DNA of 64,000 nt from an uncultured Serinicoccus sp. (GTDB taxonomy: Bacteria; Actinomycetota; Actinomycetes; Actinomycetales; Dermatophilaceae): assembly GCF_947487915.1 (NCBI RefSeq), contig NZ_CANKYH010000011.1:9919-73918 (forward strand), in the 5' to 3' direction. The position numbers were made by a program, and so were the translations under genes. Below the pieces are notes generated by a model, which saw nothing but the letters and a program-made list of their open reading frames with translations, had not been told where the DNA came from and searched no databases. This document shows, one piece after another, positions 2,103 through 63,436 of the stretch (positions are counted from its first letter, which is position 1; every line of letters begins with the position of its first letter).

Positions 2103-3119
2103 TCACGGGGCTCGGAGGAGGGCGTGCGCGCGGGTCAGCCGCGCCCGCCACCAGGACTCGCGCCCCGCGTCCATCCGGTATGCCGTGAGCGCGGCCGGGT
2201 CGACCGAGGCCCGGGCCGCGTCGGCCCGGGCGACGGTGAGCCCGCCCCCCACCGGCACGAGCGGCTCGGCGACGACGTCGGCGGCCAGCAGGGCGCCGGT
2301 GCCCAGGCCGCAGTCGTGCTCCAGGACCGGCAGCGCCGCGGCGAGCCGCACCCCCAGGGCCAGCCCCACCGAGGTGTCCAGCGCGGAGGAGACCACGGCG
2401 GGCAACCCGGCCTGCTCGATGATCTCCAGCGCCCGCGCGACGCCGCCCAGCGGCGCCGCCTTGACCACGACCAGGTCGGCCGCCCCCCGCCGGGCGACCT
2501 CCAGCGGGTCCTCGGCGCGGCGCACCGACTCGTCCGCGGCGACGGGGACGTCGACCCCGGCCCGCGCCAGCGCCAGCCGGAGGGCGGCCAGCTCGGCGAC
2601 CGTGGCGCACGGCTGCTCGGCATACTCCAGCCCCGTCGGCGCGAGCGCCGTGAGCGCCCGGACGGCGTCCTCCACGGACCAGGCGCCGTTCGCGTCGACG
2701 CGGATCCGGGCGGCCGGGCCGAGGACGCGCCGCACCTCGCGGACCCGGGCGACGTCGTCGGTCAGCCCCTGGCCCTTCTCCGCCACCTTGACCTTGGCGG
2801 TCCGGCGCGCGTCGTACCGGGCGAGCACCTGCGCGACCTCGCGGGCGGCGACCGCCGGCACGGTCGCGTTGACCCCCACCGCGTCGCGCACCGGGGCCGG
2901 CAGCCCGCCCCAGCCGGCCTCCACCGCCGCTCCGAGCCAGCGCGCGGCGTCCGCGTCGGCATACTCGGTGAACGGTGCCCACTCGGCCCACCCGTGCGGC
3001 CCGCGCAGCAGCACCGCCTCCCGCTCGGTCACCCCGCGGAAGCGCACCCGCAGCGGCAGGACCACCACGTGCGCGGCTGCCAGCAGGTCGTCCAGGTCGG
3101 GGGTCGGCGTCGGGGGCAC
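2103..3119 (-). CDS. menC: o-succinylbenzoate synthase
   Basis: Enolase-family TAKVKVA, RIRVDANG, YAEQP, VAADES motifs; men cluster; TACCCT-N6-GTG. Confidence 0.95.
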   Translation of the reverse strand: MPPTPTPDLDDLLAAAHVVVLPLRVRFRGVTEREAVLLRGPHGWAEWAPFTEYADADAARWLGAAVEAGWGGLPAPVRDAVGVNATVPAVAAREVAQVLARYDARRTAKVKVAEKGQGLTDDVARVREVRRVLGPAARIRVDANGAWSVEDAVRALTALAPTGLEYAEQPCATVAELAALRLALARAGVDVPVAADESVRRAEDPLEVARRGAADLVVVKAAPLGGVARALEIIEQAGLPAVVSSALDTSVGLALGVRLAAALPVLEHDCGLGTGALLAADVVAEPLVPVGGGLTVARADAARASVDPAALTAYRMDAGRESWWRARLTRAHALLRAP

Positions 3120-3215
3120 GGCCCCAGGGTAGGCGTGACCACCAGCCCGGGCTCACGGACAGCGGCTGACCGGGTCCCAGAGCACACTGAGGTCCTCGAC
3201 AGAAAGGGACACCCC

Positions 3216-3626
3216 ATGGCACTGAAGTGGTACACCGTCGTCGTCGACTGCGCGGACCCCCAGGCGCTGGCCCGCTGGTGGGCGGAGGCGCTGGACTGGC
3301 TGGTGGTCTTCGACACCCCGGAGGAGGCGGTGGCGGTCCCGCGCCAGGCCATGGAGGCTCCGCAGCACGAGCCCGACCTCGAGGCGTGGATGCAGCGGGG
3401 CCAGGGCCTGGTCTTCGTCCCGGTCCCGGAGGGCAAGGAGGTCAAGAACCGGCTGCACCTCGACCTCGCCCCGCACACCAGCCAGGACCGCGACGCCGAG
3501 ATCCAGCGGCTCATCGACCTCGGCGCGACCCGCGTGGACGTGGGTCAGACCGAGGAGCACACCTGGACGGTGCTGGCCGACCCCGAGGGCAACGAGTTCT
3601 GCGTGCTGTCGACCCGCGACGGCTGA
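3216..3626 (+). CDS. VOC/glyoxalase-like protein
   Basis: VVVDCADPQALARWW, KNRLHLDL, VLADPEGNEFCV; RBS GAAAGGGA. Confidence 0.9.
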   Translation: MALKWYTVVVDCADPQALARWWAEALDWLVVFDTPEEAVAVPRQAMEAPQHEPDLEAWMQRGQGLVFVPVPEGKEVKNRLHLDLAPHTSQDRDAEIQRLIDLGATRVDVGQTEEHTWTVLADPEGNEFCVLSTRDG

Positions 3627-3648
3627 GCCGCGCGCCGACCGCGCCCTC

Positions 3649-4836
3649 TCAGCAGCCGTCGCCGGGGTGCACGTACCACTCCGGCAGGTCCCCGGCGTAC
3701 GCCTGTGCGACGTCCGGCGTCCCCGTGGCACGCCAGTCGACGACGGCGTCGACCTCAGGCTCGTGCTTGCGCCACTCGAACCAGTTGACCATCTGCAACC
3801 GGGGGAAGTCCCGGTGCACGGAGGGATCGACGAGCTGGGACCACCAGGCGCGCTTCACCGCCAGCTCGTCCGCGCCGGGCCCGCCCGGGCGGAAGAAGGC
3901 TGCTGTCTCGGGGATGCCGAGGGGTTTGCCGCGCTCCTCGGCGTAGTCCGCGTAGAAGTCGGGGACGGCACTCTCGTCACCGGCAGCCCCGACGTAGGTG
4001 CCGGTGAGCTGGTCGACGAACTTGTCCTCCTCCGGCACGACGTTGTCGCCCCACGGGTGGGAGTCGCCCCAGTGGTAGAGCGACATACCGACCCAGTCCA
4101 CGGCCTCGTCGCCGGGGTAGTACGGGGCATACGGGTCGTCACCCTCGTCGACCGTCCCGTCGGCGGAGGTGTCGAGGATCCCGTAGGCCTCGGACCCGGG
4201 TGGGGCGGCGTGCGCACCACCGGTGAAGGGGTACCCCCCGCCGTAGTTGGGCGCCCACATCATGGCGCTGCCCGGGGCCTCGCGGTGGACCGCCCCGGCG
4301 ACCCGGCGGAAGGCCTCCCGGAAAGCCTCCGGTTGCTGGCCCCAGGGGTACCAGGACCCGTTCATCTCGTGCGCGAAGCGCACGATGACGGGGACACCGT
4401 CGCGGTTGTAGCCGTCCAGCAGCGCGGCGAGGGCAGCGACCGCCTCGTCGGTGACGTCGTCGAGCCCCCCGTGCGGTTCGAGCGTGAGCAGCAGCATGCC
4501 GCCGTTGGCCCGGACCTGGTCCTTCGCCGCCGTGACGTGGGCCTCGTCCTGGGACTCCAGCGGGAAGCGCGAGAAGCTCACCGCCACGGCCGGCCGCTCG
4601 CCGAGCCGTTCGGCGTACTCCGCGAGGAGGTCACGCTCCCAGTCCAGGTTGACCCCGGCCAGGACGCCGGAGGCGGGTGCCAGTCCGTCCTCCAGCGGCA
4701 GGCACCCGGCCGCTGGCGGCGGGGTCGACACCGTCTCGTCCTCCGACCCCGGCCCGGTCAGAGGTGGCACCGCGCAGGCCCCCAGGAGCACGGTGGCGAC
4801 GACGGGGAGGGCGATGCGGCTCACTCGCGTGGACAC
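3649..4836 (-). CDS. Glycoside hydrolase family 26 lipoprotein
   Basis: Lipobox LLGAC; RFAHEMNGSWYPW (acid/base Glu) and KPLGIPET (nucleophile Glu); TACGTT-N6-GTG. Confidence 0.85.
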   Translation of the reverse strand: MSTRVSRIALPVVATVLLGACAVPPLTGPGSEDETVSTPPPAAGCLPLEDGLAPASGVLAGVNLDWERDLLAEYAERLGERPAVAVSFSRFPLESQDEAHVTAAKDQVRANGGMLLLTLEPHGGLDDVTDEAVAALAALLDGYNRDGVPVIVRFAHEMNGSWYPWGQQPEAFREAFRRVAGAVHREAPGSAMMWAPNYGGGYPFTGGAHAAPPGSEAYGILDTSADGTVDEGDDPYAPYYPGDEAVDWVGMSLYHWGDSHPWGDNVVPEEDKFVDQLTGTYVGAAGDESAVPDFYADYAEERGKPLGIPETAAFFRPGGPGADELAVKRAWWSQLVDPSVHRDFPRLQMVNWFEWRKHEPEVDAVVDWRATGTPDVAQAYAGDLPEWYVHPGDGC

Positions 4837-4905: not shown

Positions 4906-5847
4906 GTGAACGATGAGAGCAGCCAGGCAGGCCACCCCTTCGACCCCGACCAGTGGGAGGCGGTCGAGGGCTTCGACCTCACCGACGTCACCTACCACCG
5001 GCACCGCGAGCTGGGCTGCGTCCGCATCGCCTTCGACCGACCGGAGGTCCGCAACGCCTTCCGCCCGCACACCGTCGACGAGCTCTACCGCACCCTCGAC
5101 CACGCCCGGATGACCCCGGACGTCGGCGTGGTCCTGCTCACCGGCAACGGACCCTCGCCCAGGGACGGGGGGTGGGCGTTCTGCTCCGGCGGCGACCAAC
5201 GGATCCGCGGCCGGAGCGGCTACCAGTACTCCTCCTCCCCCGGTGCCGACCCCACCCGCGACGGGGTGGACGAGGCCCGGGTCCGCGCCGAGGGCGGGCG
5301 GCTGCACATCCTGGAGGTGCAGCGGCTCATCCGCACCATGCCCAAGGTGGTCGTGGCGGTGGTCGGTGGCTGGGCGGCCGGAGGCGGGCACAGCCTGCAC
5401 GTCGTCTGCGACCTGACGATCGCCTCCCGGCAGCACGCCCGGTTCAAGCAGACCGACGCCGACGTCGGCAGCTTCGACGCCGGCTACGGATCGGCATACC
5501 TCGCCAAGATGGTGGGCCAGAAGAACGCGCGCGAGATCTTCTTCCTCGGCCGCGCCTACGACGCCGAGCAGATGCAGCGGATGGGGGCGGTCAACATCGT
5601 GGCCGACCACGCCGCGCTGGAGACCGAGGCGGTGCAGGCGGCCCGCGAGATCCTCGGCAAGAGCCCGACCGCCCAGCGGATGCTCAAGTTCGCGCTCAAC
5701 CTCACCGACGACGGCCTCATGGGCCAGCAGGTCTTCGCCGGCGAGGCGACCCGGCTGGCCTACATGACCGACGAGGCGGTCGAGGGCCGCGACTCCTTCC
5801 TGGAGAAGCGCGAGCCGGACTGGCGCGCCTACCCCTGGTACTTCTGA
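4906..5847 (+). CDS. menB: 1,4-dihydroxy-2-naphthoyl-CoA synthase
   Basis: AFCSGGDQRIRG, GWAAGGGHSLHVVCDL, GSFDAGYGS; TAGGCT-N7-GTG. Confidence 0.97.
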   Translation: MNDESSQAGHPFDPDQWEAVEGFDLTDVTYHRHRELGCVRIAFDRPEVRNAFRPHTVDELYRTLDHARMTPDVGVVLLTGNGPSPRDGGWAFCSGGDQRIRGRSGYQYSSSPGADPTRDGVDEARVRAEGGRLHILEVQRLIRTMPKVVVAVVGGWAAGGGHSLHVVCDLTIASRQHARFKQTDADVGSFDAGYGSAYLAKMVGQKNAREIFFLGRAYDAEQMQRMGAVNIVADHAALETEAVQAAREILGKSPTAQRMLKFALNLTDDGLMGQQVFAGEATRLAYMTDEAVEGRDSFLEKREPDWRAYPWYF

Positions 5848-6583: not shown

Positions 6584-7727
6584 CGACCTGGTCGTGCCGC
6601 CCGGCGCGACCTGGACCGACCTCGGGCCGCCGCTGCGACGGCTCATGACCGGTGCCCAGCAGCGGCCGGTCGTCGTGTCGACCTCCGGATCCAGCGGCAC
6701 GCCGAAGCGGGTGCGGCTGCCCGCGGCCGCGCTGCGCGCCTCGGGCACCGGCACCGCCGAGCGGCTCGGCGGGCACGGCCAGTGGGTGCTCGCCCTGCCC
6801 ACCCACCACGTCGCCGGGCTGCAGGTCCTCGCCCGGTCGGCGCTGGCCGGCACCGAGCCGGTCGAGCTGGATGCCGCGCGACCGTTCACCGCGGAGGTCC
6901 TCGCCGCGGCCGTCGGGAGGCTGGACCCCAACACCCGCCGCTACGCCTCGCTCGTCCCGACCCAGCTGCACCGGGCGCTCGCCGACCCCGAGGGCGTGGC
7001 CGCGCTGCGGGACCTGGACGCGGTCCTCGTGGGCGGTGCGGCCACCGACGACGCGCTGCTGGCGCGGGCCCGGGCGGCCGGCGCCCGCGTCGTCACGACG
7101 TACGGCATGTCCGAGACCTGCGGCGGCTGCGTCTACGACGGGGTGCCGCTGCCCGGGGTCCGGGTCGAGGTGACCGTGGAGGGCCGCGTCCGGCTGGGCG
7201 GGCCGGTGCTGGCGGAGGGTTACGTCGACGACGCGGACCGCACGGCGCGGTCCTTCGTCACCGACGCGTCCGGCCGGTGGTTCCTCACCGAGGACCGCGG
7301 GGTATGCCGTGCCGGCCGCCTCACCGTGCTCGGCCGGGTCGACGACGTCGTCCTCACGGGCGGGCACAAGGTCGAGCCGCGCGACGTGGAGACGGCGCTG
7401 CGGGCGCTGCCGGGCGTGCGGGACGCGCTGGTCGTCGGCGTGCCGGACGCCGAGTGGGGCCAGCGGGTGGCCGCCCTGGTCACCCTGGAGCACGGCCCGG
7501 GGCCGCCCGCCACCCGTCGCGACGCCGGCGCCGAGCAGCACCGCGGCGACCCCCCGACGGGTGCGGACCTGCGCGCCGCCCTGCGCCGGAGCCTGCCCGC
7601 GCACGCGGTGCCGCGGCAGGTCGAGGTGGTGGACGGCATACCTGCGCTGCCCACCGGCAAGCCGGACCGGGCGGCGGCGCGTCGACTGCTCGACGCGGGT
7701 GGCAGAATGAAGCCTCACCTGCACTGA
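6567..7727 (+). CDS. menE: o-succinylbenzoate-CoA ligase
   Basis: STSGSSGTPK P-loop, TTYGMSETCGG, TEDRG, GRVDD and TGKPDR adenylation motifs; start uncertain. Confidence 0.9.
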   Translation: MAADADDLVVPPGATWTDLGPPLRRLMTGAQQRPVVVSTSGSSGTPKRVRLPAAALRASGTGTAERLGGHGQWVLALPTHHVAGLQVLARSALAGTEPVELDAARPFTAEVLAAAVGRLDPNTRRYASLVPTQLHRALADPEGVAALRDLDAVLVGGAATDDALLARARAAGARVVTTYGMSETCGGCVYDGVPLPGVRVEVTVEGRVRLGGPVLAEGYVDDADRTARSFVTDASGRWFLTEDRGVCRAGRLTVLGRVDDVVLTGGHKVEPRDVETALRALPGVRDALVVGVPDAEWGQRVAALVTLEHGPGPPATRRDAGAEQHRGDPPTGADLRAALRRSLPAHAVPRQVEVVDGIPALPTGKPDRAAARRLLDAGGRMKPHLH

Positions 7728-8033: not shown

Positions 8034-8909
8034 ATGGCCACCCTCGCCCAGTGGATCGAGGGCGCGCGACCGCGCACCCTCCCCGCCGCGCTCGCCCCCG
8101 TGCTCGTCGGCACCGCCGCCGCAGATGCCCTCGGCGCCGCGGACCTCGGTCTCGCGGTGCTGGCGCTGTGCGTCGCGCTCGGCTTCCAGATCGGCGTCAA
8201 CTACGCCAACGACTACTCAGACGGGATCCGCGGCACCGACGAGGACCGGGTCGGACCGGTCCGGCTGGTCGGGCAGCGGCTGGCCGACCCCGCCAACGTC
8301 CGGACCGCCGCGTTCGCCGCGTTCTTCGGCGCGGGCCTGTGCGGCCTGACGCTCGTGGCGCTGTCCGGGGCGTGGCTGCTCATCGTCCTCGGCGCGCTGG
8401 CCGTGTGGGCGGCCTGGCACTACACCGGGGGCGCCAAGCCCTACGGCTACCGCGGGCTCGGCGAGGTCATGGTCTTCGTCTTCTTCGGGCTCGTCGCCGT
8501 GCTCGGCACCACCTGGACCCAGGCGCAGGCCCTCGACCTCGCGGCCCTCGGCGGCGCGGTCGGCTGCGGCCTGCTGGCCAGCGCCATCCTCGTCACCAAC
8601 AACCTGCGCGACCTCGAGGGCGACCGGGCCGCGGGCAAGCGCACCCTCGCCGTCCGCATCGGCTTCCGGCGCACCCGCCGGCTCTACGCCGGGCTCCTCG
8701 TCGGCGCCTTCGCCGCGGTCCTGGTCGCTGCGCTGGCCCACCCCCTGGCGCTGCTCGGCCTGCTCGCCGCCCCGCTGGCCTGGCGCCCCTACCGCCTCGT
8801 CACCGACCCCGACGCCTACGGCCCGGCGCTGCTGCCCGCGCTGGCGCAGACCGGCGTCCTGCAGCTGGGGTATGCCGTCGCCCTCTCGGTCGGCCTCGTC
8901 CTGTCCTGA
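8034..8909 (+). CDS. menA: 1,4-dihydroxy-2-naphthoate polyprenyltransferase
   Basis: GARPRTL, NYANDYSDGIRGTD, NNLRDLEGD UbiA-family motifs. Confidence 0.96.
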   Translation: MATLAQWIEGARPRTLPAALAPVLVGTAAADALGAADLGLAVLALCVALGFQIGVNYANDYSDGIRGTDEDRVGPVRLVGQRLADPANVRTAAFAAFFGAGLCGLTLVALSGAWLLIVLGALAVWAAWHYTGGAKPYGYRGLGEVMVFVFFGLVAVLGTTWTQAQALDLAALGGAVGCGLLASAILVTNNLRDLEGDRAAGKRTLAVRIGFRRTRRLYAGLLVGAFAAVLVAALAHPLALLGLLAAPLAWRPYRLVTDPDAYGPALLPALAQTGVLQLGYAVALSVGLVLS

Positions 8910-10118: not shown

Positions 10119-11113
10119 TTCGCGACCCCCGAGTAGGAGTGCAGCCCGGTCATGAGCAGGTTGACCACGGTGTAGTTGACGACGATGCAGGCGAACCCGG
10201 CGATGGCGACCCAGGTCGCCCGACGCGTGGTCCACCCGGACGTCGCGCGGGCGTGCAGGTAGGCGGCATACACCACCCAGATGACGAAGCTCCAGGTCTC
10301 CTTGGGGTCCCAGCCCCAGTAGCGGCCCCAGGCCTGCTCGGCCCACACGGCGCCCGACATCACCGCGAAGGTCCACAGCGGGAAGGCCACGATGTGCACG
10401 CCGTAGGTGATCCGCTCGAGCTTCACCGCCTCCGGCAGCGCGGCCAGCCAGCCCCGCACCTCCCCCTTGCGCTGGGCGCTGTCGCGGAGCAGGTAGGCCG
10501 TCGCGACCGCCGCGCCCAGCAGGAACAGCGCGATGGAGAGGGTGGCGACGGTGACGTGGATGACCAGCCAGATGTTGTCCAGGGCCGGCATGAGCTGGGA
10601 GGCCTCGGTGTACCACCACAGCTTGGCGGCCCCGAGGATGAGCAGCACCGGCACCACGACGAAGGCACCCAGCCACAGCCGGTCCCTGCGCAGGCTCCAC
10701 GCGGAGTAGACCACCAGCGCGAAGGAGGCCGTGAACAGCGCGAACTCGTACATGTTGCCCAACGGGGCGCGGGTCACCGACAGCCCGCGCAGCACCGTCC
10801 CGGCCACGACGAGGAAGGTCGCCAGCCAGGTGAGCTGCAGGCCGACCACGCCCCAGCGGCGGGTGGGCGCGGGAGCGTCGGCTGCCGACGCGAGGACCGG
10901 GCCCGGCCCGGGACCGACGGAGGTCGGCGGCGCCGCGCCCCCGGCCCCGGCCGCCACCGGGACCTCCTCCCGCGCCGTGCGGTCGGCGCGACGGGTGCGC
11001 CTCGAACCGGTGACCGCGAGGTGCACCGAGAAGGCGACCATGGCCAGGGCCAGCACCACGATGGCGGCCCAGATCGCGAGGTCGCTGGCCTGGGCCAGGG
11101 AAGCGTTCGTCAT
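10115..11113 (-). CDS. ccsB: Cytochrome c biogenesis protein CcsB/ResC
   Basis: PLGNMYEF, WLVIHV, WGRYWGWDPKETW (WWD domain). Confidence 0.96.
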   Translation of the reverse strand: MTNASLAQASDLAIWAAIVVLALAMVAFSVHLAVTGSRRTRRADRTAREEVPVAAGAGGAAPPTSVGPGPGPVLASAADAPAPTRRWGVVGLQLTWLATFLVVAGTVLRGLSVTRAPLGNMYEFALFTASFALVVYSAWSLRRDRLWLGAFVVVPVLLILGAAKLWWYTEASQLMPALDNIWLVIHVTVATLSIALFLLGAAVATAYLLRDSAQRKGEVRGWLAALPEAVKLERITYGVHIVAFPLWTFAVMSGAVWAEQAWGRYWGWDPKETWSFVIWVVYAAYLHARATSGWTTRRATWVAIAGFACIVVNYTVVNLLMTGLHSYSGVAN

Positions 11114-12801
11114 ACCTCATCCTTGTCTCGCGCGTCGTCCCGCGCCGCGTCCGCGGCGTCACCGGTCGCCCGGTCGGGTTCGAGGACCCGGCCGCCGCTC
11201 GCCCCGACGATCTGCTCGACGAGCTCGTCGACCAGGTTGTCCAGGCCGGGGTCGGTGCCCTTGGGCAGGGCGGCGACGCTCAGTCCAGTATGCCGCGAGC
11301 CCGGGTCGGCCGGATCGCCCGCACCCGGGTGGACGCGGACGAAGACCCGGCGCCTCCGGACACCGAGCATGAGCACCAGCCCGACGAGGGCCGTGCCCGC
11401 GAAGAGCAGGGCCGGCAGCCGGCCCGGGTCGTGCCGCACGAGCATGCCGCCCCAGCGGATGACCGTCTCCATCTCGATGGTGCCCCGGTCGCCCGGGACC
11501 TCCAGAACGTCGCCCGGGCGCAGCAGCATCCGGCTGGGCTGCCCGTCGTCCTGCATCACCTGGTCCAGGGACTCAGTGGGCAGCGAGAAGACCGACTGCG
11601 AGCGGCCCTCCGGGAAGAGCTCGCCCTCGTAGGCGGTGAGCACCAGGGCCGGGTCGACCAGACCCGGGAAGGACGAGGTCATCCCGGCCTCGCTGATGTC
11701 CAGGGTCGGCAGGAAACCGCCGGCGAAGCCCAGCCCCGGGTCGGCGCCGGGCACCTTGATGACGCCGTCCGAGCCGTAGGTGTTGTCCTGCGGCAGGAAG
11801 GTCACGGCGTCGGAGAAGAGGATCTCCCCGGCCTCGTCCCGGACGGTGACGACCGGGGCGTAGCCGTTGCCGAGGAGGAACATCGAGGTGCGGTCGACAG
11901 ACAACGGGTCGTTGACCCCGAAGCCGACCTGACGCTCGGACCCGTCGGCCTCGATGGTGGCCACCCCCTGGAAGACGCGCGGCTGGCCGAACTGCGCGCC
12001 CTCGGCCTGCGCCTCGAACTGCACGTCGAGGTCGTCCAGTCGGACGGTGAAGGCGGGGATGTCGGACTCGTCGACGAGCGGGCCGAGGCTGAGGGTGTCG
12101 AAGGTGCCGGCCCCCGAGGTCCAGGACTCGCCCTCCTTGATGATGATCTCGCCGCGCCAGCCGAAGAGGTGGCCGACCGCGACGGCGACGATGATGCCGA
12201 GCAGGGCCAGGTGGAAGAGCAGGTTGCCGGTCTCCTTGGCGAAGCCCTTCTCGGCAGCCACGACGAGGGCGCCGTCCTCCTCCTCGCGCAGCCGGAAGCG
12301 CCGCGCGGCGAGCCGGGACCGGGCCGCCGCGACCACGTCGTCCGGCGCCGCGTCCAGCACGAGGTGGCGGTGCACCGGGAGCCGTCCGAGCCGCGCGGGG
12401 CTGCGGGGCGGCTGCGCCCGCACCGCCCGCAGGTGCTGGCGCATCCGCGGCAGCACGCACCCGACGAGGCTGACCATGAGCAGCAGGTAGATCGAGGCGA
12501 ACCAGGGCGAGGAGTAGACCTCGAACATCCCGAGCCGGTCCAGCCAGCGGGCCAGGCCGGGGTCGTCCTCGAAGTACTGCCGCACCCGGACCGGGTCGAC
12601 CCCGCGCTGGGGGAAGATCGACCCGGGCACGGCCGCGACCGCCAGCAGCAGCAGGAGGGCCAGCGCCGTGCGCATGCTGGTGAGCTGGCGCCAGGCCCAG
12701 CGCGCCCAGCCCACCGGGCCCAGCCGCGGGCCGCCGAGGGTGGTGCGGTCCTTGGGGTAGCTCGCCTCGATCCGCTGCCGGTCCTGCTGGTCGGTGGCCA
12801 T
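11110..12801 (-). CDS. resB: Cytochrome c biogenesis protein ResB/Ccs1
   Basis: WRQLTSMRTAL, VYSSPWF, GNLLFHLAL; operon context. Confidence 0.93.
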   Translation of the reverse strand: MATDQQDRQRIEASYPKDRTTLGGPRLGPVGWARWAWRQLTSMRTALALLLLLAVAAVPGSIFPQRGVDPVRVRQYFEDDPGLARWLDRLGMFEVYSSPWFASIYLLLMVSLVGCVLPRMRQHLRAVRAQPPRSPARLGRLPVHRHLVLDAAPDDVVAAARSRLAARRFRLREEEDGALVVAAEKGFAKETGNLLFHLALLGIIVAVAVGHLFGWRGEIIIKEGESWTSGAGTFDTLSLGPLVDESDIPAFTVRLDDLDVQFEAQAEGAQFGQPRVFQGVATIEADGSERQVGFGVNDPLSVDRTSMFLLGNGYAPVVTVRDEAGEILFSDAVTFLPQDNTYGSDGVIKVPGADPGLGFAGGFLPTLDISEAGMTSSFPGLVDPALVLTAYEGELFPEGRSQSVFSLPTESLDQVMQDDGQPSRMLLRPGDVLEVPGDRGTIEMETVIRWGGMLVRHDPGRLPALLFAGTALVGLVLMLGVRRRRVFVRVHPGAGDPADPGSRHTGLSVAALPKGTDPGLDNLVDELVEQIVGASGGRVLEPDRATGDAADAARDDARDKDEV

Positions 12802-13568
12802 CAGAGCACCGTCTCGAAGCCGCTGACCAGCTGTGCCTGCACCCACGCGGTCAGGCCCGCCCACACCCCGCTCAGCATGAGCAGCCCCAGCACGACGAGC
12901 AGGCCGCCGCCCACGCGCTGGATCACCAGGTAGTGGTCGCGCAGCCACCGGGAGGCCCGGCTCACCCAGCCGACCCCCGCCGCCACGAGGAGGAAGGGCA
13001 GGCCCAGACCCAGGCTGTATGCCGTGCCCAGCACCACCGCGCGGCCCACCTGGTCCTCCCCCGGGACGATCGAGGTGCCGAGGGTCTGGATCGCCGCGAG
13101 CGCCGGGCCGGTGCAGGCGGTGAAGCCCAGCCCGAAGGCCACGCCGAGCAGGGGCGCCCCGGCCAGGCCGGCCGCGGGTCGCCACCGCAGCTGCCAGGAG
13201 GCGCCGGGCTGCACGATCATCACGAGGCCGAGGACCAGCACGACCGCCCCGGCCACGCGCAGCAGCAGGCCCTGGTGCTGCACGAGCGCCAGCCCCAGCC
13301 CGGAGATCGCCACGCTCATCAGGAGGAAGACCGCGGTGAAGCCCAGGACGAAGAGCAGCGCGCCGAGCACCAGCCGGCCCCGCGCCGGCCCGGCGGCGCC
13401 GGCCGCCGACGCGTCCTCGCCCGGGCGACCGGGCGTCATACCCCCGAGGTAGCCGAGGAAGCCGGGCACGAGCGGGAGCACGCAGGGCGAGGCGAAGGAG
13501 ACCACGCCCGCGAGCGCGGCCACACCCACGGCCAGCAGCAGCGGCCCGGTGAGGACGAGGTCGCTCAC
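12801..13568 (-). CDS. ccdA: Cytochrome c biogenesis protein CcdA
   Basis: VSFASPCVLPLVPGFL and FTACTGP cysteine motifs. Confidence 0.93.
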   Translation of the reverse strand: MSDLVLTGPLLLAVGVAALAGVVSFASPCVLPLVPGFLGYLGGMTPGRPGEDASAAGAAGPARGRLVLGALLFVLGFTAVFLLMSVAISGLGLALVQHQGLLLRVAGAVVLVLGLVMIVQPGASWQLRWRPAAGLAGAPLLGVAFGLGFTACTGPALAAIQTLGTSIVPGEDQVGRAVVLGTAYSLGLGLPFLLVAAGVGWVSRASRWLRDHYLVIQRVGGGLLVVLGLLMLSGVWAGLTAWVQAQLVSGFETVL

Positions 13569-14254: not shown

Positions 14255-14961
14255 CTCGTCACCTCGCCGGCCTCGCCGGTCACGTCCACCGCGGCGTCGA
14301 GCAGGTGACCGGCCGGCTCGGCATACATGACCCGGACGGGCAGCGGGCCGTGGAAGAGGATGGTGGTCACCGAGGCCAGGCTGCACCGGCGCCGCCGCGG
14401 GTGGTGCCACAGCCGCTCCCCCTGCACGGCGCGGCGCAGCGTCCAGATCGGCAGCTGGTGGCTGACCACGACGCCCTCGTGGCCCTTGACCTGATGGCGC
14501 AGGGCGTCCAGCCCGGCCCGCATCCGGGTGGCGATCTCGGCGTAGGGCTCGCCCCAGGAGGGGCGGAAGGGGTTGACGTAGAGCGGCCAGTGCCGGGGGT
14601 CGGCCAGCATGCGCCGGTCCACCCGCTCGCCCTCGAAGGCGTTGCCGCTCTCCACGAAGCGCTCGTCGACGTCGACCTCCACGCCGTGGACGCCCGCGAT
14701 CGGCTCGGCCGTCTCCCGGGCCCGCTCGAGCGGGGAGCTCACGACCCGTCGGACGTCCCGGTCGGCCAGGTGCTCCGCGGTGGCGTGCGCCATCCGTCGA
14801 CCGAGGTCGGAGAGGTGGTAGCCGGGCAGCCGACCGTAGAGGATGCGCTCGGGGTTGTGCACCTCGCCGTGCCGCACGACGTGCACGAGGGTGACGGGAG
14901 TGCCGTCGTGGAGGGTCCGTGGGGTGCCCTCGCTGGGGGGCAGACCGTCGGCTCCAGACAT
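14251..14961 (-). CDS. Histidine phosphatase family protein
   Basis: VVRHGEVHNP (RHG motif), SSPLERARET, VVSHQLPI; GAGAAT-N6-ATG. Confidence 0.92.
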   Translation of the reverse strand: MSGADGLPPSEGTPRTLHDGTPVTLVHVVRHGEVHNPERILYGRLPGYHLSDLGRRMAHATAEHLADRDVRRVVSSPLERARETAEPIAGVHGVEVDVDERFVESGNAFEGERVDRRMLADPRHWPLYVNPFRPSWGEPYAEIATRMRAGLDALRHQVKGHEGVVVSHQLPIWTLRRAVQGERLWHHPRRRRCSLASVTTILFHGPLPVRVMYAEPAGHLLDAAVDVTGEAGEVTR

Positions 14962-16857: not shown

Positions 16858-17846
<989 letters not shown>

Positions 17847-17850
<4 letters not shown>

Positions 17851-22519: not shown

Positions 22520-22674
22520 CACGGCGGCACCGGCTCCTCTCTGGATGGGCAGCGCCGACCCGGTGGGGGCTTATATCAGACCCTCGTGCACCGATCGGCG
22601 CGGACCCCATCAACTCTAGGCTCGGACCCCGTCTTCCTCCAAAACGGCGCCGGGCCCCGGGCTCCCGCGGAGCG

Positions 22675-22956: not shown

Positions 22957-22978
22957 GGGCCCTCCCTCCGGAGACGAC

Positions 22979-23005
22979 GAGGCGCCCCGGTGGACGGGGC
23001 GCCTC
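22979..23005. terminator. 11-bp stem-loop downstream of the bS22 gene
   Basis: GAGGCGCCCCG-GTGGA-CGGGGCGCCTC perfect inverted repeat. Confidence 0.6.
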
Positions 23006-23036
23006 GGTCGGGTCGTCGGCGGTGTCGCCGGACGTC

Positions 23037-24917: not shown

Positions 24918-24947
24918 GGGCACACGCTAGACCACGCGGACCGCGGG

Positions 24948-26366: not shown

Positions 26367-26371
26367 CGCGG

Positions 26372-36477: not shown

Positions 36478-36527
36478 ACCGCGAATGCTACGTCACGGAC
36501 CCTCGGCCGCCGGGCCGGCGAGACCGC

Positions 36528-41043: not shown

Positions 41044-41123
41044 GACGGGCACGACGCGGCATACCGGGCGTGACATGCACGACGGGAGCCCGTGCCGCCC
41101 GTCCGACGGCACGCGGGTATGCC
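41044..41123. repeat. Left copy of palindromic direct repeat flanking the DUF559 gene
   Basis: GACGGGCACGACGCGGCATACCGGGCG...GAGCCCGTGCCGCCCGTCCGACGGCACGCGGGTATGCC; abuts the gene stop codon. Confidence 0.85.
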
Positions 41124-42161: not shown

Positions 42162-42262
42162 GACGGGCACGACGCGTGCATACCGGGCGCATCGTGCGGG
42201 ACGTGAGCCCGTGCCGCCCGTCCGACGGGCCGTGCCGCCCGTCCGGCGGCACGAGGTATGCC
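42162..42262. repeat. Right copy of palindromic direct repeat flanking the DUF559 gene
   Basis: GACGGGCACGACGCGTGCATACCGGGCG...GAGCCCGTGCCGCCCGTCCGACGGGCCGTGCCGCCCGTCCGGCGGCACGAGGTATGCC, with an internal ~20-bp duplication. Confidence 0.85.
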
Positions 42263-50764: not shown

Positions 50765-51823
50765 ATGAGCGCCCCGGCACCTCCGCACGGGACCACGGGC
50801 TGGGAGCCGGCCTGGCAGCAGGCGCTCTACGGCCCCGGCGGCTTCTACCGCGCGAGCGCTCCGTCCGCCCACTTCGCGACCTCGGCCCAGGGCATCCCCG
50901 GGGGTGGGGAGCTGCTGGCCGCCGCGGTCGTCGCCCTCGCGCGCCGGCACGGATGCCGGCGCGTCGTCGACCTCGGGTGCGGCCGCGGCGAGCTGCTCAC
51001 GCAGCTCCGGCGGCTGGACCCGTCGTTGCACCTGACCGGGGTCGATGTCGTCGCGCGACCCACGGGGCTCGACGTCGACGCGTGGCTGGTCTCCCCCGGC
51101 GGCGCGGCGCTGCCCGACGAGCTGCGCGACCTCCCGCAGACCCTGGTCCTCGCGCACGAGTGGCTCGACGTCGTCCCGTGCCCCGTGGTGGCCCGCGACG
51201 CGACAGGGGTGTGGCGCTCCCTCGCCGTCGCCCCGGACGGCACCGAGCATCTCGGCCCGGTGCTGCGCGGCGACGACCTCGCCTGGGTGCGCCGCTGGCT
51301 CGACGACGACGACGGGTCGGACCGGCGGGGCGAGGTGGGCCGGCCCCGGGAGGCTGCGCTCGCCGACCTCGTGGGCCGGGTCCGCAGCGGCCTGGTGGTG
51401 ATGGTCGACTACGGCCACACGGCGGAGGACCGGCCGCCGCACGGCACCCTCACCGGCTTCCGCGGCGGTCGCGAGGTCCCCCCCGTGCCGGACGGCAGCT
51501 GCGACCTGACGGCGCACGTCGCCGTGGACGCCCTCCTCGCCCACCTCCGCATCGGACGCGCGGGAGGCGAACCGGACACCGGACGCGCGGGAGGCAGGCC
51601 CCGGCTGGCCCGCCAGCGCGACCTGCTGCGCGACCTCCTCGGTGATCCCGGGACCAAGGTGCCGCACGCGCTGTCGCGGACCGACCCACCGGCATACCTC
51701 GCAGGACTCGCCCGGCGGGCCGCCCTGACGACGCTCACCGGCGCAGCCCTGGGCGACTTCTGGTGGCTGCTCGTGCCGGTGGGACCAGCGCCCGGCGACG
51801 CCTCGGCCCCGGGCATAGGGTGA
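50765..51823 (+). CDS. SAM-dependent methyltransferase, MidA/NDUFAF7 family
   Basis: [39 protein letters not shown]. Confidence 0.85.
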
Positions 51824-53082: not shown

Positions 53083-53586
53083 TCAGCCGTAGGCGAGGTC
53101 GCCGTCGCTCACGCCGTCGTCGTCATCGTCGTCGTGCTCGGTCGGGGGGATCCGGCACCACGCCTGACCGAGGTAGCCGGACGCCGACAGGCCCAGCGCC
53201 ACCGCAGCATGCACGAGCCCCCACACCAGCTGCACGCGCTCGCTCGGGACATCGGCGTTGGGCAGGTGGACCAGGGCGTTCGCGGCATACCACCCCAGCA
53301 GCGCGGCGCCACCCAGCGCGGCCGCCTGCGCCCCCACGAGGGTGCCCCGGCCGCGCTGCGGGGAGGGGCGGACGCTGCCGCGCCCGAGGAGGTAGCGCCG
53401 GATCTGCCAGCACATGACCAGCACGAGCAGCGCCACGGCGACCAGCGGGACGAGCCCGATCCAGGAGATCGCCGGGTAGCCGCCGCCGAGCGAGCGCACC
53501 ACCTGCAGCAGCAGCCAGCTGGCCATCGCGGTGAGCACGGAGAGGACCGCGCCCGTGCCGACCCGCACCCCGTCCTGCGTGCTCAC
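53083..53586 (-). CDS. DUF3180 family membrane protein
   Basis: Four hydrophobic segments, C-terminal WCRIPP-DDDD; typical position after folK. Confidence 0.85.
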   Translation of the reverse strand: MSTQDGVRVGTGAVLSVLTAMASWLLLQVVRSLGGGYPAISWIGLVPLVAVALLVLVMCWQIRRYLLGRGSVRPSPQRGRGTLVGAQAAALGGAALLGWYAANALVHLPNADVPSERVQLVWGLVHAAVALGLSASGYLGQAWCRIPPTEHDDDDDDGVSDGDLAYG

Positions 53587-54482: not shown

Positions 54483-55314
54483 CGGCAGCCCCCTGCGTCA
54501 GCTCCCACACCGCGAGCGCGTCTCGGGTCGGTCCCACCTCGTGCACCCGCACCGCCCAGGCACCCGCCTGCGCGGCGAGCAGGCTCGTGGCAGCCGTCGC
54601 GACGTCGCGCTCCTGGGGTGCGGTGGGCTCGTCGGGCACCGGCGCACCGGGGCGCGCGGGCAGCCGGCCGAGGAAACGCTTGCGCGAGGCCCCGACGAGC
54701 ACCGGCAGCCCGAGCGCGACGACCCGGTCCAGCCCGGCCAGCAGCGTCCAGTTGTGGCCCGCGTCCTTGGAGAAGCCGAGGCCCGGGTCCAGCACCAGCT
54801 GCTCCTCGCGCACGCCCAGCCCGACCAGCGCGTCCACCCGGTCGGCGAGCTCGGCGCAGACCTCGCCCACGACGTCGTCGTAGTGGTGGGTGGCGGTGGG
54901 GTCGCTCAGCAGCCCCCGCCAGTGCATGACGACGTAGCGGGCACCGGTCTGCGCGACCATCGGCCCCATCTCGGGGTCGCCCAGCCCACCGGACACGTCG
55001 TTGACGAGGACCGCTCCGGCCTCCAGGGCCGCCTGCGCGACGGACGCGCGCATGGTGTCGATCGACACGGCATACCCCTCCTGCGCGAGTGCGGAGACGA
55101 CCGGCAGCACGCGTCCGCGCTCCTCGTCCTCCGACGGACGGCTGCTGCCGGGCCGTGTCGACTCACCGCCGACGTCGATGAGCTCGGCGCCCGCCGCCGC
55201 GAGGTCGCGTCCGCGGGCGACCGCGGCCGCGGGGTCGACGAAGCGGCCGCCGTCGCTGAAGGAGTCGGGCGTGACGTTGACGACGCCCATGATCGAGGTA
55301 TGCCGGTGGCTCAC
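54472..55314 (-). CDS. folP: Dihydropteroate synthase
   Basis: MGVVNVTPDSFSDGG, GGESTRPG, LDPGLGF, GASRKRF, VRVHE. Confidence 0.97.
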   Translation of the reverse strand: MSHRHTSIMGVVNVTPDSFSDGGRFVDPAAAVARGRDLAAAGAELIDVGGESTRPGSSRPSEDEERGRVLPVVSALAQEGYAVSIDTMRASVAQAALEAGAVLVNDVSGGLGDPEMGPMVAQTGARYVVMHWRGLLSDPTATHHYDDVVGEVCAELADRVDALVGLGVREEQLVLDPGLGFSKDAGHNWTLLAGLDRVVALGLPVLVGASRKRFLGRLPARPGAPVPDEPTAPQERDVATAATSLLAAQAGAWAVRVHEVGPTRDALAVWELTQGAAGAR

Positions 55315-59735: not shown

Positions 59736-60734
59736 CTATGCCTCACCCTGCAGCCGCACCCCCTCCCCCGTCCGGGAGGCCCGGACCCCGCCGGGCAGGT
59801 GCAGCGGTCCCTGCCCGCGCCAGTCGGTGACGAGGGTGTCGACGGCCCGCAGGTGCTCCCCGGTGAGGTCGGTGCCCGGGCTGCCCTGCTCGAGCGCCAC
59901 CCGCCGCCACAGCCGGGTGCGGACCGCCCGGGGCAGCGCCGCCAGAGCCGGGGCACCCCACGGCTGCTCGCCCAGGTCGAGGTATGCCGTGTCCGCCAGC
60001 GCGTCCAGCGCGTCGGCGTCGTCGCGCAGCAGGTCGGCGGAACGCGCCAGGTTGCCGGCCAGGCCCGGGCCGAGGTCGCTCTCGAGCCCCGCGAGCGCCT
60101 GCCGGGCCCGCACCCGCGCGAAGCGGCGGTCCTCGTTGTGCGGGTCGCGGTGGGGCGCCAGGCCCAGCGCCGCGCAGGCGTCCGAGGTCTGCTGCCGGGA
60201 GAGCCCGAGCAGGGGCCGGCCGAGCAGCACACCCTCGCCCAGGGGCCGCCGGCCGACCATGCCGGCCAGCGAGCGGGCGCCGGACCCGCGGGCCAGGCCG
60301 AGCAGGACCTGCTCGGCCTGGTCGTCGCGGGTGTGCCCCAGCAGCACCGCCGCGGCGCCGAGCCGTCGCGCCCCGTCGGCCAGCGCGGCGTACCTCGCCC
60401 TCCGCGCGTCCGCCTCCGGACCGGCGCCCGAGGACGCGACCGCCACCCGTACCACCTCGACGGACGACCCGTCGGGGAGCAGCGACCGGCACCGGTCCAC
60501 AGCCTCCCGGGCCACGTCCGCCGACCCGGGCTGCAGCCCGTGGTCCACGACGACGGCACCGACGGCATACCCGGCGCGGGGGGCGACGAAGCCGGTCGCC
60601 GCCGTCAGCGCCAGCGAGTCGGCCCCGCCGGAGCACGCGAGCAGCACCAGCGACCCCCGCTCCAGGCCGCTGCCGTCCAGCCACCGGCGCACCGCGACGC
60701 GCGCGTCCGCCAGGGCCGGGGGCGGTCCGGGCAC
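59736..60734 (-). CDS. tilS: tRNA(Ile)-lysidine synthase
   Basis: ACSGGADS PP-loop, DHGLQ, ARRARY, GHTRDDQAE, DPHNED. Confidence 0.96.
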   Translation of the reverse strand: MPGPPPALADARVAVRRWLDGSGLERGSLVLLACSGGADSLALTAATGFVAPRAGYAVGAVVVDHGLQPGSADVAREAVDRCRSLLPDGSSVEVVRVAVASSGAGPEADARRARYAALADGARRLGAAAVLLGHTRDDQAEQVLLGLARGSGARSLAGMVGRRPLGEGVLLGRPLLGLSRQQTSDACAALGLAPHRDPHNEDRRFARVRARQALAGLESDLGPGLAGNLARSADLLRDDADALDALADTAYLDLGEQPWGAPALAALPRAVRTRLWRRVALEQGSPGTDLTGEHLRAVDTLVTDWRGQGPLHLPGGVRASRTGEGVRLQGEA

Positions 60735-60738
60735 CGGC

Positions 60739-61872
60739 TCAGCCGTGGACGCGGGCGACCCACGCCTGCGGGTCGGCGATCTCGGTCGGCCGGGGCAGGG
60801 TCTGCGGCGAGGTCCAGACGCGGTTGAACCCCTCCACGCCGACCTGGTCCTGGACCGCCCGGACGAAGATCGCGCCGTCCTTGTACTGCCTCATCTTCGC
60901 CTCCATGCCGAGCAGCCGGCGCAGCAGCTTGTCGACGTTGCCGGCGCCCTTGCGCCGCTGCGTGAACCGGCGGCGGATCTCGGCCACCGAGGGGATGACG
61001 CTGGGCCCGACCTCGTCCATGACCACGTCGGCATGACCCTCGAGCAGGGACATGACAGCGGTGACCTCGGCGAGCTTCTCCCGCTGCTCGGGCGTGGCGA
61101 CGACCTGCGTGATGTCCGCCTCGCCGCGGATGACGTCGGGGAGGGCGCCGGCGATCTCCCTGAGCCGCTGCCCGAGGTCCTCCGGCTCGGGCATGATCCG
61201 GGTGCCCATGCTGCGGGCCCGCTCGATGACGTGCTCGCGCAGCCAGGGCACCGCGGTGAACTGCACCCGGTGGGTCTCCTCGTGCATGGCGACCCACAGG
61301 CGGAAGTCCCCGGGGTCCACGCCGAGCTCGCGCTCGGCCGCGAGGATGTTGGGGGCGACGAACATCAGGGAGGGGGTGCCCTGCGGGGAGAGGTCGTACT
61401 GGCCCAGCACCTTGGTCGAGATCCACGACAGCAGACCCGCGACCTCGGTGCCCGTGACCTTGGCCGAGATGGCCTGCGAGGTGGCGCCCAGGTCCGGCAG
61501 CTCCCGGCCGGCCCGCTGTGCCCGGGCCCGGTCGGCGGCCCGCTTCTTGCGCACCACCTCGTCGAGGACGGGGGCGAGCATGGCGTCCATCGAGGCGCAG
61601 TTGGCGCGGATCCAGCCGGCCCGGTCGACCACCAGCGCCTCGGGGGTGCCGGGCGGGGTGGACAGCCGGGCGGTCGTGGCGACCGGGTCCACGGCCCGCG
61701 CGGCGGCGGACCGCAGGTCGGTGACCAGCTCGGTGATCTCGCGCCGGCTCGCCCGCGGCCCGGGGGGCGCCAACCGCGCGGCGGCCGCGGCGGCGAAGTC
61801 CCAGTCCACGAGGGCGCTGCCCCGCACGTCGTCGAGGGGAACGTCGTCGGTGGGGGCGGGATGCTCGCTCAT
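60739..61872 (-). CDS. Zinc-dependent metalloprotease (DUF2342-type)
   Basis: VLGQYD, FRLWVAMHEETHRVQF (HExxH), MSLLEGHAD, KMRQY; TACCGT-N6-ATG. Confidence 0.9.
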   Translation of the reverse strand: MSEHPAPTDDVPLDDVRGSALVDWDFAAAAAARLAPPGPRASRREITELVTDLRSAAARAVDPVATTARLSTPPGTPEALVVDRAGWIRANCASMDAMLAPVLDEVVRKKRAADRARAQRAGRELPDLGATSQAISAKVTGTEVAGLLSWISTKVLGQYDLSPQGTPSLMFVAPNILAAERELGVDPGDFRLWVAMHEETHRVQFTAVPWLREHVIERARSMGTRIMPEPEDLGQRLREIAGALPDVIRGEADITQVVATPEQREKLAEVTAVMSLLEGHADVVMDEVGPSVIPSVAEIRRRFTQRRKGAGNVDKLLRRLLGMEAKMRQYKDGAIFVRAVQDQVGVEGFNRVWTSPQTLPRPTEIADPQAWVARVHG

Positions 61873-61918
61873 GCGGTGACGGTATGCGCTCGCTCGCCCC
61901 CGCGGCGACCCGGGATGC

Positions 61919-63436
61919 TCAGCAGCCGCACCGGGCGAGGTCGGCGACCACCTCGTCCAGCACCGAGGCCGCCTCGATCGCGGCGGAGCCCCGGTCGATG
62001 TCGTCGGCCGTCAGGGCGTAGACGAGCAGCCGCCCGTCGCGGGTCACGACCGTGCCGGCGAGCGAGCTGACCCCGGGCAGGGTGCCGGTCTTGGCGCGGG
62101 CGTTGCCGACGGCCGGGTCGTGGACCTCGAGGTGGAACCGGGTGGCGAGGGTGCCGGTGTAGCCGGCGATCGGCAGGCCGCCCGCGGCGAGCACCTCCTG
62201 CAACCGGGGGTGGGAGCCGTCGGCGCCGGCCACGAGGACGTCGGCGACGGCGGCGACCGGGATGAGGGTGCCTTCGGACAGCCCGCTGGCGTCCGTGAGG
62301 CGGACCCCCGTCATGTCCAGCCCGTAGTCGTCGACCATCGTCTGCCGGATCCAGGCGGTGACCGACTCCTGGTCGGCCGCCTCGCCGTCGGCCACCGCGG
62401 CCTGTCGGGCCAGCTGCTCGACCATGGCGTTGTCACTGGTCGCCAGCGCCAGCGCCAGCACGTCGCGGGCCGCCGCGGACTCCACCGTGGCGAGCTCGCG
62501 GGCGTCCGGCGCCACCTGCACCTCCTCCGCCCGGGCGTCGTCGTCCCCGGCGCCCTCGACCTCGACGCCTTCCTCCGCGAGCGCCTCGCGGAACACCCGG
62601 GCCACCTGCTGCTCGGGCGCGCGGGGCGAGGGGTTGAAGGGTCGGGCGCGGTCGGCCGAGCGGCCGATCTGCACGATGCGGCCGGCGTAGCCCTCGTCGA
62701 GCCAGCGGTCGATCCACGTGGGCATGGCGTGCGGACCCTCGACGTAGGTCAGGTCCAGGCTCACCCGGACCGGTCCGTCGGGAGCGGCCTCGCCGGCCTC
62801 CTGCGCGGACCCGAGCGAGGCCGCGGTCTGCGCCGCCAGGTCGCTGATCCCGGCGTGCCCGGCCACGGCCTCCGGGTCGCCGGCGCCGTCGGCGAGCAGC
62901 ATGTCCCCCCCGGCGACGAGCACCACCTCACCCGGGTCGGCGCCCGCGACCACCCGCGTGGTGAAGGTGTGGTCCCCCGGCAGCCCGGTGACGACGGCCG
63001 CGGCGGCGAGCAGCTTGGTCGTCGAGGCCGGGGTGACCAGACGGGAGGAGTAGCGGTCGCCCAGCGGCTCACCGGTGAGGGCGTCGCGGATGGCGACGGC
63101 GCGGCGGGTGGTGCCGCCCAGCCAGGTGCTGTCGAGCTCGTCGCTGATCTGCCCGGACACGGCGCCGCGGTCCGGCACCGGCGCCGTGGTGACCGGCCGC
63201 AGGGGCTCCGTGGCGGGCGCGATCCGCGGGCGCACCTCGCCCGGGGACGGCGCGGCGTCCGTCGTGGTGGTGGCCCGGTCCTGCGCCGGCGCGTCCTCCG
63301 TGGCGCCGACCTGCTCGGAGGCGGCGGCGCGCGGGCCGGCCGTCCCGGGCGCGAGCGAACCGAGGGCGACCGCGAGCGCGGTGACCCCGGCGAGGGCATA
63401 CCGTGTGCTGCGGGGGGTGCTGCGCAGACCTTCCAC
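61919..63436 (-). CDS. dacB: D-Ala-D-Ala carboxypeptidase/endopeptidase (peptidase S13, PBP4)
   Basis: PASTTK (SxxK), SDN, KTGTL; start uncertain. Confidence 0.93.
   Translation of the reverse strand: MEGLRSTPRSTRYALAGVTALAVALGSLAPGTAGPRAAASEQVGATEDAPAQDRATTTTDAAPSPGEVRPRIAPATEPLRPVTTAPVPDRGAVSGQISDELDSTWLGGTTRRAVAIRDALTGEPLGDRYSSRLVTPASTTKLLAAAAVVTGLPGDHTFTTRVVAGADPGEVVLVAGGDMLLADGAGDPEAVAGHAGISDLAAQTAASLGSAQEAGEAAPDGPVRVSLDLTYVEGPHAMPTWIDRWLDEGYAGRIVQIGRSADRARPFNPSPRAPEQQVARVFREALAEEGVEVEGAGDDDARAEEVQVAPDARELATVESAAARDVLALALATSDNAMVEQLARQAAVADGEAADQESVTAWIRQTMVDDYGLDMTGVRLTDASGLSEGTLIPVAAVADVLVAGADGSHPRLQEVLAAGGLPIAGYTGTLATRFHLEVHDPAVGNARAKTGTLPGVSSLAGTVVTRDGRLLVYALTADDIDRGSAAIEAASVLDEVVADLARCGC

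Follow-up and report, generated by a model that had tools for sequence, protein, structure and literature searches.

GGCATAC, a hyper-abundant DNA word of one actinobacterial family whose copies tend to alternate between strands

A short asymmetric DNA word, GGCATAC on one strand and GTATGCC on the other, is repeated throughout a 64,000-nucleotide stretch of the genome of an uncultured Serinicoccus sp. of the family Dermatophilaceae (the window, C11:9919-73918 of a 3.70-Mb assembly with 72.7% GC in 65 contigs). We found this word to be in large excess over the whole genome, favoured at each of its seven positions, and spaced in such a way that copies of the same orientation exclude one another over ~0.75 kb while copies of opposite orientation do not. 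Based on these features of the sequence, we tentatively suggest that the word is a family-specific self-DNA signal, read by strand, in DNA exchange or recombination, a reading that we regard as plausible but short of probable.

Genome-wide excess of the word and its upkeep at the DNA level

Within the window, 40 exact copies of the word were counted (22 on the + strand and 18 on the - strand; the first at 2178 and the last at 63401), with a chance level of 1.95 ± 1.35 copies and a maximum of 7 in 100 dinucleotide-preserving shuffles. A first-pass annotation of the same DNA had arrived at 39 copies, about 22 of GGCATAC and 17 of GTATGCC; the + strand figure was borne out, and the - strand figure and the total were corrected to 18 and 40. 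The 28 octamers reported there were recovered in full on recounting GGCATACC, while the octamer found family-wide, CGGCATAC, occurred 33 times, and 22 of the copies were present as the 9-mer CGGCATACC. The copies were not confined to the window, as 2,053 were detected genome-wide (one per 1.8 kb), and GGCATA was the most over-represented hexamer of the genome under a maximal-order Markov model. A C preceded the word in 78% of these copies and followed it in 71%, with conservation around a copy limited to 7-10 bases.

To examine codon effects, synonymous codons were permuted within each gene such that the protein sequence and the codon usage of the gene were kept. The codon-aware shuffle that the first-pass annotation had named as a check left 163.5 ± 12 copies in called genes, compared with the 1,370 observed, and thus gave an observed/expected ratio of 8.4, far from a value near 1. 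An artefact of codon or dipeptide usage was rejected, as the excess survives a shuffle that preserves both amino acids and codon usage. Taken separately, the six classes of frame and strand each displayed an excess of 4-12 fold. When synonymous third positions were scored with the other six bases fixed, every position was found to be favoured, with odds ratios of ~6 to 58 in nine of the ten scorable contexts. The rare Ile codon ATA provides an example: its share of Ile codons was 28% in the context GGC-ATH-C versus 1.2% overall, and 164 of the 305 ATA codons of called genes fall within the word. Since all seven positions are favoured at synonymous sites, the whole word is maintained at the DNA level, against codon preference.

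About two thirds of the copies were inside called genes, in all frames. Gene calls cover ~72% of the genome, such that comparisons of coding with non-coding density are approximate; on this basis, the word was ~1.4 fold denser in the spacers between genes than in genes, and convergent spacers were no richer in it than tandem or divergent spacers. Density was raised 1.5-2.1 fold over the first 100 bp that follow stop codons, in four independent data sets, and some inverted pairs of the word form perfect hairpins.

Strand balance and orientation-dependent spacing

Forward and reverse counts were balanced on every contig of >40 kb, as well as in 400 kb of a complete chromosome from the same genus, which extends to the whole genome the absence of strand skew that had been noted in the window. 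The skew of the motif had no consistent relation to GC skew or to gene orientation. The order of the copies was found to be far from random with respect to strand, with 1,231 opposite and 802 same-orientation pairs among adjacent copies, a departure from parity of ~9.5 standard deviations by the normal approximation. When pairs were sorted by distance, those of the same orientation reached just 0.19-0.47 of the expected number at distances up to 500 bp; the value rose to 0.67 for 500-750 bp and to 0.88 for 750-1000 bp, and slightly exceeded expectation at 1.5-2 kb. Pairs of opposite orientation, convergent and divergent alike, were at ~1.1-1.5 of expectation past the first 25 bp, with no depletion. 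The ratio of same to opposite pairs at 20-500 bp was 0.31 for the word (107 vs 340), whereas 150 control 7-mers, chosen at random among asymmetric words of comparable abundance, gave 1.42 ± 0.82 and never less than 0.87.

The exclusion of same-orientation copies was observed both within genes and across gene boundaries, and was detected in other genomes of the family, including: (i) a genome of another genus (G115), where the same-orientation ratio was 0.06-0.67 below 750 bp (460 copies in 320 kb); (ii) a second species of the genus under study (G017), with 102 same and 157 opposite pairs; (iii) the comEC loci of 33 other word-rich genera, with 41 same and 83 opposite; and (iv) 16 hemL loci, with 65 same and 123 opposite. 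Thus, the force on a site depends on a same-orientation copy within ~0.75 kb, and the two orientations behave as independent series. As the exclusion is confined to same-orientation copies, the two orientations appear to be separate signals, as judged by spacing rather than by uptake. We consider this strand alternation to be the most informative feature of the word.

Several observations were made on the surroundings of the copies. At C2:350080-350160, five tandem 18-bp units (GTATGCCTGCCGCCGCCG) violate the same-orientation exclusion, in an open reading frame (ORF) for a peptide with GGGRHT repeats. Around perfect copies, one-mismatch variants displayed no significant upstream/downstream asymmetry. 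The 100-700 bp 5′ of GGCATAC were GC-richer than the 3′ side, by +0.0050 (z 6.8) in this genome (G000), for which the z values of control words had a standard deviation of 1.45 and did not exceed 3.7, and by +0.0085 (z 4.3) in G017. This asymmetry was gone beyond 700 bp, resided in codon positions 1 and 2 and not in 3, and was not seen in G115 (genus g38) or when the other genera were pooled. As a source of the asymmetry, GC-biased conversion tracts 5′ of the word were rejected on two grounds, the lack of signal at third codon positions and the lack of any asymmetry in G115.

Distribution among relatives, copy-poor islands and the copies of the window

The best hemL matches placed the organism beside Ornithinimicrobium (80-83% identity). 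Among 151 genomes of the family, the 9-mer count was bimodal, with either 250 to 2,700 copies or fewer than ~45 and a few genomes between, while twelve other families of the order were at background level. When 401 genomes from 61 families of the class were compared, more than ~400 copies of CGGCATAC were found only in this family. The lineage-specific, actively maintained motif proposed at first is therefore upheld, as the word belongs to one family of 61, is present in all frames and on both strands, and is favoured at all seven positions. Among the named genera, those rich in the word include Ornithinimicrobium, Terrabacter, Intrasporangium, Flexivirga, Arsenicicoccus, Tetrasphaera, Phycicoccus, Pedococcus, Knoellia, and Humibacillus. 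The word state was clustered on a tree of 66 genera built from ComEC and required 11 changes, with at least 7-8 of them on well-supported branches; word-poor lineages were nested in word-rich clades, which indicates repeated loss.

The bases flanking the word differ between genera, with C before the core in 98% and C after it in 49% of the copies of G115, versus 78% and 71% here. The core of the word is CGGCATAC across the family and CGGCATACC in this genus. Alignment of eight gene families around hemL revealed that 28 of 42 sites were species-specific and that a few were common to up to seven species. The sites fell on the permissive dipeptides Tyr-Ala and Ala-Tyr, which word-poor species encode as TAC-GCC or GCC-TAC.

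One word-poor genome (G038, genus g21, 2.6 Mb; C1:500001-700000) was found to have an over-represented word of its own, CCGCATCG, which has a GCAT core in common with the family word and a density of 0.93 per kb, compared with 0.12-0.19 per kb in four other genomes. This word was without strand alternation (122 same and 132 opposite adjacent pairs). The notion that word-poor relatives merely use another spelling was rejected, since the word of G038 does not alternate and no strong word was present in G081 or in four Janibacter loci, in which the family word is almost absent.

The long copy-free stretches of this genome were mostly low-GC islands, and the small contigs C15, C17, and C18 were nearly word-free. 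On contig C4, ~80 kb (~13.7-92 kb) of lower GC is almost without the word and encodes several P-type heavy-metal ATPases together with duplicated multicopper oxidases; this region is probably an acquired metal-resistance island. In the window, the copy-free stretch reported by the first-pass annotation was located again, at 17845-26804, and proved to be unexceptional genome-wide, with 26 gaps of >8 kb versus 19.5 expected and a normal GC of 0.740. Long ORFs chosen at 17841-22211, 23529-25661, and 55693-57627 had no NCBIfam match at E <= 1e-10 and are probably wrong-frame ORFs of high-GC DNA.

The copies of the window are listed in Table 1. The uses of rare codons described previously hold. The genes menE (6420-7727, +) and hemL (15007-16329, -) were both identified by NCBIfam, with the menE copy at 7635 read in frame as GGC ATA C; the gene formerly termed alkA was found to encode an Ogt/Ada methyltransferase C-terminus. 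The overlap with a start codon was likewise seen, for the heptamer at 36473-36479.

Table 1. Copies of the word in the window and the cassette gene located among them (positions are those of the window)
Feature	Positions	Strand	Context
9-mer CGGCATACC	2177..2185	-	
8-mer CGGCATAC	2618..2625	+	
8-mer CGGCATAC	2957..2964	+	
7-mer GGCATAC only	4126..4132	+	
9-mer CGGCATACC	5492..5500	+	
9-mer CGGCATACC	7301..7309	-	within menE, GTA codon
9-mer CGGCATACC	7634..7642	+	within menE, GGC ATA C, rare Ile codon
9-mer CGGCATACC	8869..8877	-	
8-mer CGGCATAC	10264..10271	+	
8-mer CGGCATAC	11288..11295	-	
8-mer CGGCATAC	13017..13024	-	
8-mer CGGCATAC	14319..14326	+	
9-mer CGGCATACC	15254..15262	-	within hemL
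8-mer GGCATACC	16034..16041	+	
8-mer CGGCATAC	17385..17392	+	
8-mer CGGCATAC	17839..17846	-	final copy ahead of 9-kb copy-free stretch
8-mer GGCATACC	26803..26810	-	first copy past copy-free stretch
9-mer CGGCATACC	29415..29423	+	
9-mer CGGCATACC	29994..30002	+	
9-mer CGGCATACC	30584..30592	+	
9-mer CGGCATACC	33215..33223	-	
9-mer CGGCATACC	34283..34291	-	
9-mer CGGCATACC	35114..35122	-	
8-mer GGCATACC	36473..36480	+	over ATG of ORF 35200-36477 (-)
9-mer CGGCATACC	41057..41065	+	left arm of hairpin-like element 41044-41123, just 3′ of DUF559 gene
8-mer GGCATACC	41116..41123	-	right arm of element 41044-41123; inverted pair, 59 bp apart
AbiEi_4-HTH/DUF559 (Vsr-like fold) gene	41127..42035	-	word-free inside; Pfam PF04480, PF13338
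8-mer GGCATACC	42255..42262	-	end of second flanking repeat; other arm degenerate (TGCATAC)
9-mer CGGCATACC	43793..43801	+	
9-mer CGGCATACC	43945..43953	-	152 bp from opposite-orientation copy 43793
8-mer CGGCATAC	44807..44814	-	
9-mer CGGCATACC	48007..48015	-	within Ogt/Ada-type gene
8-mer CGGCATAC	49028..49035	+	
8-mer CGGCATAC	49812..49819	+	
9-mer CGGCATACC	51690..51698	+	
9-mer CGGCATACC	53283..53291	+	
9-mer CGGCATACC	55068..55076	+	
9-mer CGGCATACC	55297..55305	-	229 bp from opposite-orientation copy 55068
9-mer CGGCATACC	59981..59989	-	
9-mer CGGCATACC	60563..60571	+	
8-mer GGCATACC	63395..63402	+	

The DUF559 gene of the window lies between word-carrying direct repeats (41044-41123 and 42162-42262; 88% identical over 67 bp), which are hairpin-like units of 80-100 bp whose ends are the word in inverted orientation. 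The possibility that this ~80-bp repeat is a genome-wide element was rejected, as it was present at that locus only. Two of the five DUF559 cassettes of this genome were flanked by word-carrying direct repeats, namely the window locus and a locus on C8 with the 13-bp GCGGCATACCGCC on both sides. DUF559 gene bodies were word-poor (0.36 vs 0.95 per kb), and a word-built hairpin directly followed the DUF559 stop codon at 6 of 40 loci in other genera, compared with 0.3-6.5% of ordinary genes. DUF559 cassettes may target, or hitch-hike on, word-carrying sites. A second AbiEi-type cassette (C4:336140-337600) is bounded by terminal inverted repeats of 16-19 bp. It is closely preceded by three copies of CCACGGCATACCTCCTGG, all in one orientation, and the stop codon of an IMP-dehydrogenase-like gene falls within the first of these; a further copy lies 28 bp past the far inverted repeat.

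Explanations for the word and comparison with known systems

The process in which the word takes part, exchange or recombination, and its mode of accumulation we infer from the spacing and distribution described above. A signal of this kind must be read on one strand or in one direction, with a benefit that saturates at one copy per ~1 kb of strand. We propose that a factor would read the whole word on each strand separately, with DNA fragments or single strands as its substrate, and that the setting would be either DNA import (as for an uptake sequence) or the processing of DNA ends (as for Chi). If one copy per strand per roughly 1 kb is enough, then copies would accumulate only up to that spacing, by molecular drive or weak selection, and would override codon preference in doing so. 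A nearby second copy of the same orientation would gain nothing and would decay, and copies on the other strand would form an independent series. Among the known analogues, uptake sequences build up through molecular drive acting on fragments, and Chi is recognized on single-stranded DNA according to its orientation. In the magnitude of its excess, its rarity in islands, its genus-level flanks and its hairpins after stop codons, the word recalls the DNA uptake sequences (DUS) of Neisseriaceae and the uptake signal sequences (USS) of Pasteurellaceae, while the strand specificity recalls Chi.

The likeness to DUS (GCCGTCTGAA and its dialects) and USS (AAGTGCGGT core) can be drawn in several respects. 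The word is likewise short, non-palindromic and present once per 1-2 kb; it is equal on both strands without replication skew; it is written into genes in all frames at a codon cost (1,370 copies vs 163.5 expected); it is restricted to one family, with flanking bases that vary by genus as dialects do; and it is scarce in foreign islands and enriched just after stop codons, with some inverted pairs as hairpins. The differences are that the host belongs to the phylum Actinomycetota, that word-poor genera have the import parts ComEC, comEA, and Tad-type ATPases just as often, and that a type IV pilus or a ComP-like receptor was not identified, where the check covered only ComEC, comEA, and Tad-type ATPases. 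In Neisseria, the competence pilus has a dedicated DUS receptor, ComP. Chi attenuates the nuclease and loads RecA according to its orientation. With Chi, the word would share (i) an asymmetric sequence, of 5-8 nt in Chi, that is read on one strand in an orientation-dependent manner and marks self DNA against degradation; and (ii) two orientations that are functionally independent, where a nearby second copy brings diminishing returns. It differs from Chi in that RecBCD does not track the word and in that the excess is far above what codon usage explains.

A number of results weigh against a strand-read self-DNA signal. The exclusion would be explained just as well by an oriented signal of any kind that reaches ~0.7 kb, for example a site where a protein nucleates and then spreads one way, or a strand-specific nick. 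Strand alternation is not a known property of DUS or USS, although this comparison sets spacing here against reported uptake there. Uptake by DUS and USS was reported to be independent of orientation (PMC1939737), which makes the word a variant of them at most. The known Chi sites follow the direction of replication, unlike the word. Gene presence was compared across 67 genus representatives (with a contrast of 34 word-rich and 26 word-poor genera) or across 21 contrast genomes, and no reader was found among the candidate families checked. RecC failed to track the word, being present in 7 of the 34 word-rich and in 11 of the 26 word-poor genera, and AdnAB-type nucleases (PDDEXK_1) were present in 67/67 genera and are thus uninformative. 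ComEC was intact in all 67, word-rich and word-poor alike, and comEA was found beside comEC in most of them; their presence in itself speaks for the proposed reading, yet ComEC does not track the word, and no word-specific extra gene accompanied the pair. Tad/T2SSE ATPases (66/67 genera) did not track the word, and DUF559 (60/67) included word-poor genera. FtsK and EccC-like proteins were detected in all 21 contrast genomes, with small TraB-like genes only sporadic. In addition, we know of no report of natural competence in this family.

It is possible, if doubtful, that the word is the first known self-DNA signal that operates on each strand separately and irrespective of the direction of replication. 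Such a signal could serve as a Chi-like stop or loading site for end resection by AdnAB or another nuclease at two-ended breaks, or could act on imported single strands, and it would spread by molecular drive, which would set one copy per strand per ~1 kb. NucS/EndoMS mismatch repair is thought to make two-ended breaks in Actinobacteria and may be linked to the word. To our knowledge, no Chi has been described for AdnAB, and neither a Chi nor an uptake sequence is known to us in Actinomycetota; a full-text literature search found no description of the word in Actinobacteria.

We regard it as rather unlikely that the word is instead an oriented signal for chromosome maintenance, selected for coverage, in which each orientation serves one strand or direction; examples would be the loading site of a protein that spreads one way over ~0.7 kb, or a nick or mark on one strand that lets repair discriminate between the strands. 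The exclusion of same-orientation copies to ~750 bp with an independent opposite orientation is the redundancy that this explanation predicts, and the spacer density, just ~1.4 fold that of genes, looks as if coverage saturates. Directionality is also suggested by the 5′-side GC excess over the same 100-700 bp in G000 and G017; however, this excess is absent from G115 and the pooled other genera and lies in codon positions 1 and 2, not 3. Neither repeated loss within the family nor absence from resident islands would be expected of an essential, resident signal. No candidate protein is known, where MutS/MutL and MutH-like partners were not searched for.

An origin like that proposed for highly iterated palindrome 1 (HIP1, GCGATCGC) of cyanobacteria, with a sequence-specific methyltransferase and biased very-short-patch or mismatch repair turning near-matches into the word, was put forward in the first-pass annotation and is improbable. 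The word resembles HIP1 as a hyper-abundant, lineage-specific octamer that is written into genes and kept against codon bias, and this genome has one N6/N4-type methyltransferase gene (C7:66998-67672). HIP1 is, however, palindromic and linked to methyltransferases, whereas the word is asymmetric and strand-alternating, with all seven positions favoured and not a single mismatch position. This genome lacks both Vsr and C5 methyltransferase, and three sporadic families showed no correlation with the word. Vsr was present in 13 of the 34 word-rich and in 6 of the 26 word-poor genera, C5 methyltransferase in 18 and 11 of them, and N6/N4 methyltransferase in 10 and 9 (PF02384, Type I/IIG, was not tested). 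The dependence of the exclusion on neighbours and orientation argues against a site-autonomous repair bias of this kind. A classical polar signal, either the Chi of RecBCD or a sequence that orients FtsK, such as the FtsK-orienting polar sequences (KOPS) or architecture imparting sequences (AIMS), would share with the word an asymmetric, over-represented 7-9-mer at Chi-like density. KOPS and AIMS display a strong strand skew that switches at origin and terminus, and no contig displayed such skew for the word, which excludes classical Chi and KOPS; together with the distribution of RecC and an excess beyond codon usage, this makes a classical polar signal very improbable. A non-polar, Chi-like role read by AdnAB would instead fall under the proposed self-DNA signal. 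Footprints of mobile elements, whether units like repetitive extragenic palindromic (REP) sequences or miniature inverted-repeat transposable elements (MITE), or insertion scars, perhaps of the AbiEi-DUF559 cassettes, would be in keeping with the perfect hairpins formed by some inverted pairs, the word hairpins after DUF559 genes (6/40 loci) and the word-carrying flanking repeats. Yet REP, MITE and bacterial interspersed mosaic elements (BIME) are intergenic imperfect palindromes of at least 20 bp that spread as units, and about two thirds of the copies of the word are in genes, made by single synonymous changes at permissive dipeptides, such that a REP/MITE-type spread is excluded. Only 7-10 bases are conserved, the 80-bp unit of the window is unique to its locus, and DUF559 is found in word-poor genera as well; scars of this kind are, in our judgment, an exceedingly remote explanation.

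Hyper-abundant genomic words are rare, and DUS, USS, Chi, and KOPS each revealed a machine for discriminating self from foreign DNA or for the direction of the chromosome. The present case sits in a Gram-positive, high-GC phylum and provides a natural experiment through at least 8 independent losses inside one family. The exclusion of same-orientation copies over ~0.75 kb is a new quantitative signature, one that restricts the mechanism to action on fragments or single strands rather than on single sites. Among the members of the family are the Tetrasphaera/Phosphoribacter group, which removes phosphorus from wastewater, and several genera that can be cultured. In these genomes the word can readily serve to tell native from acquired DNA, and it may be needed for the efficient genetic manipulation of these organisms.

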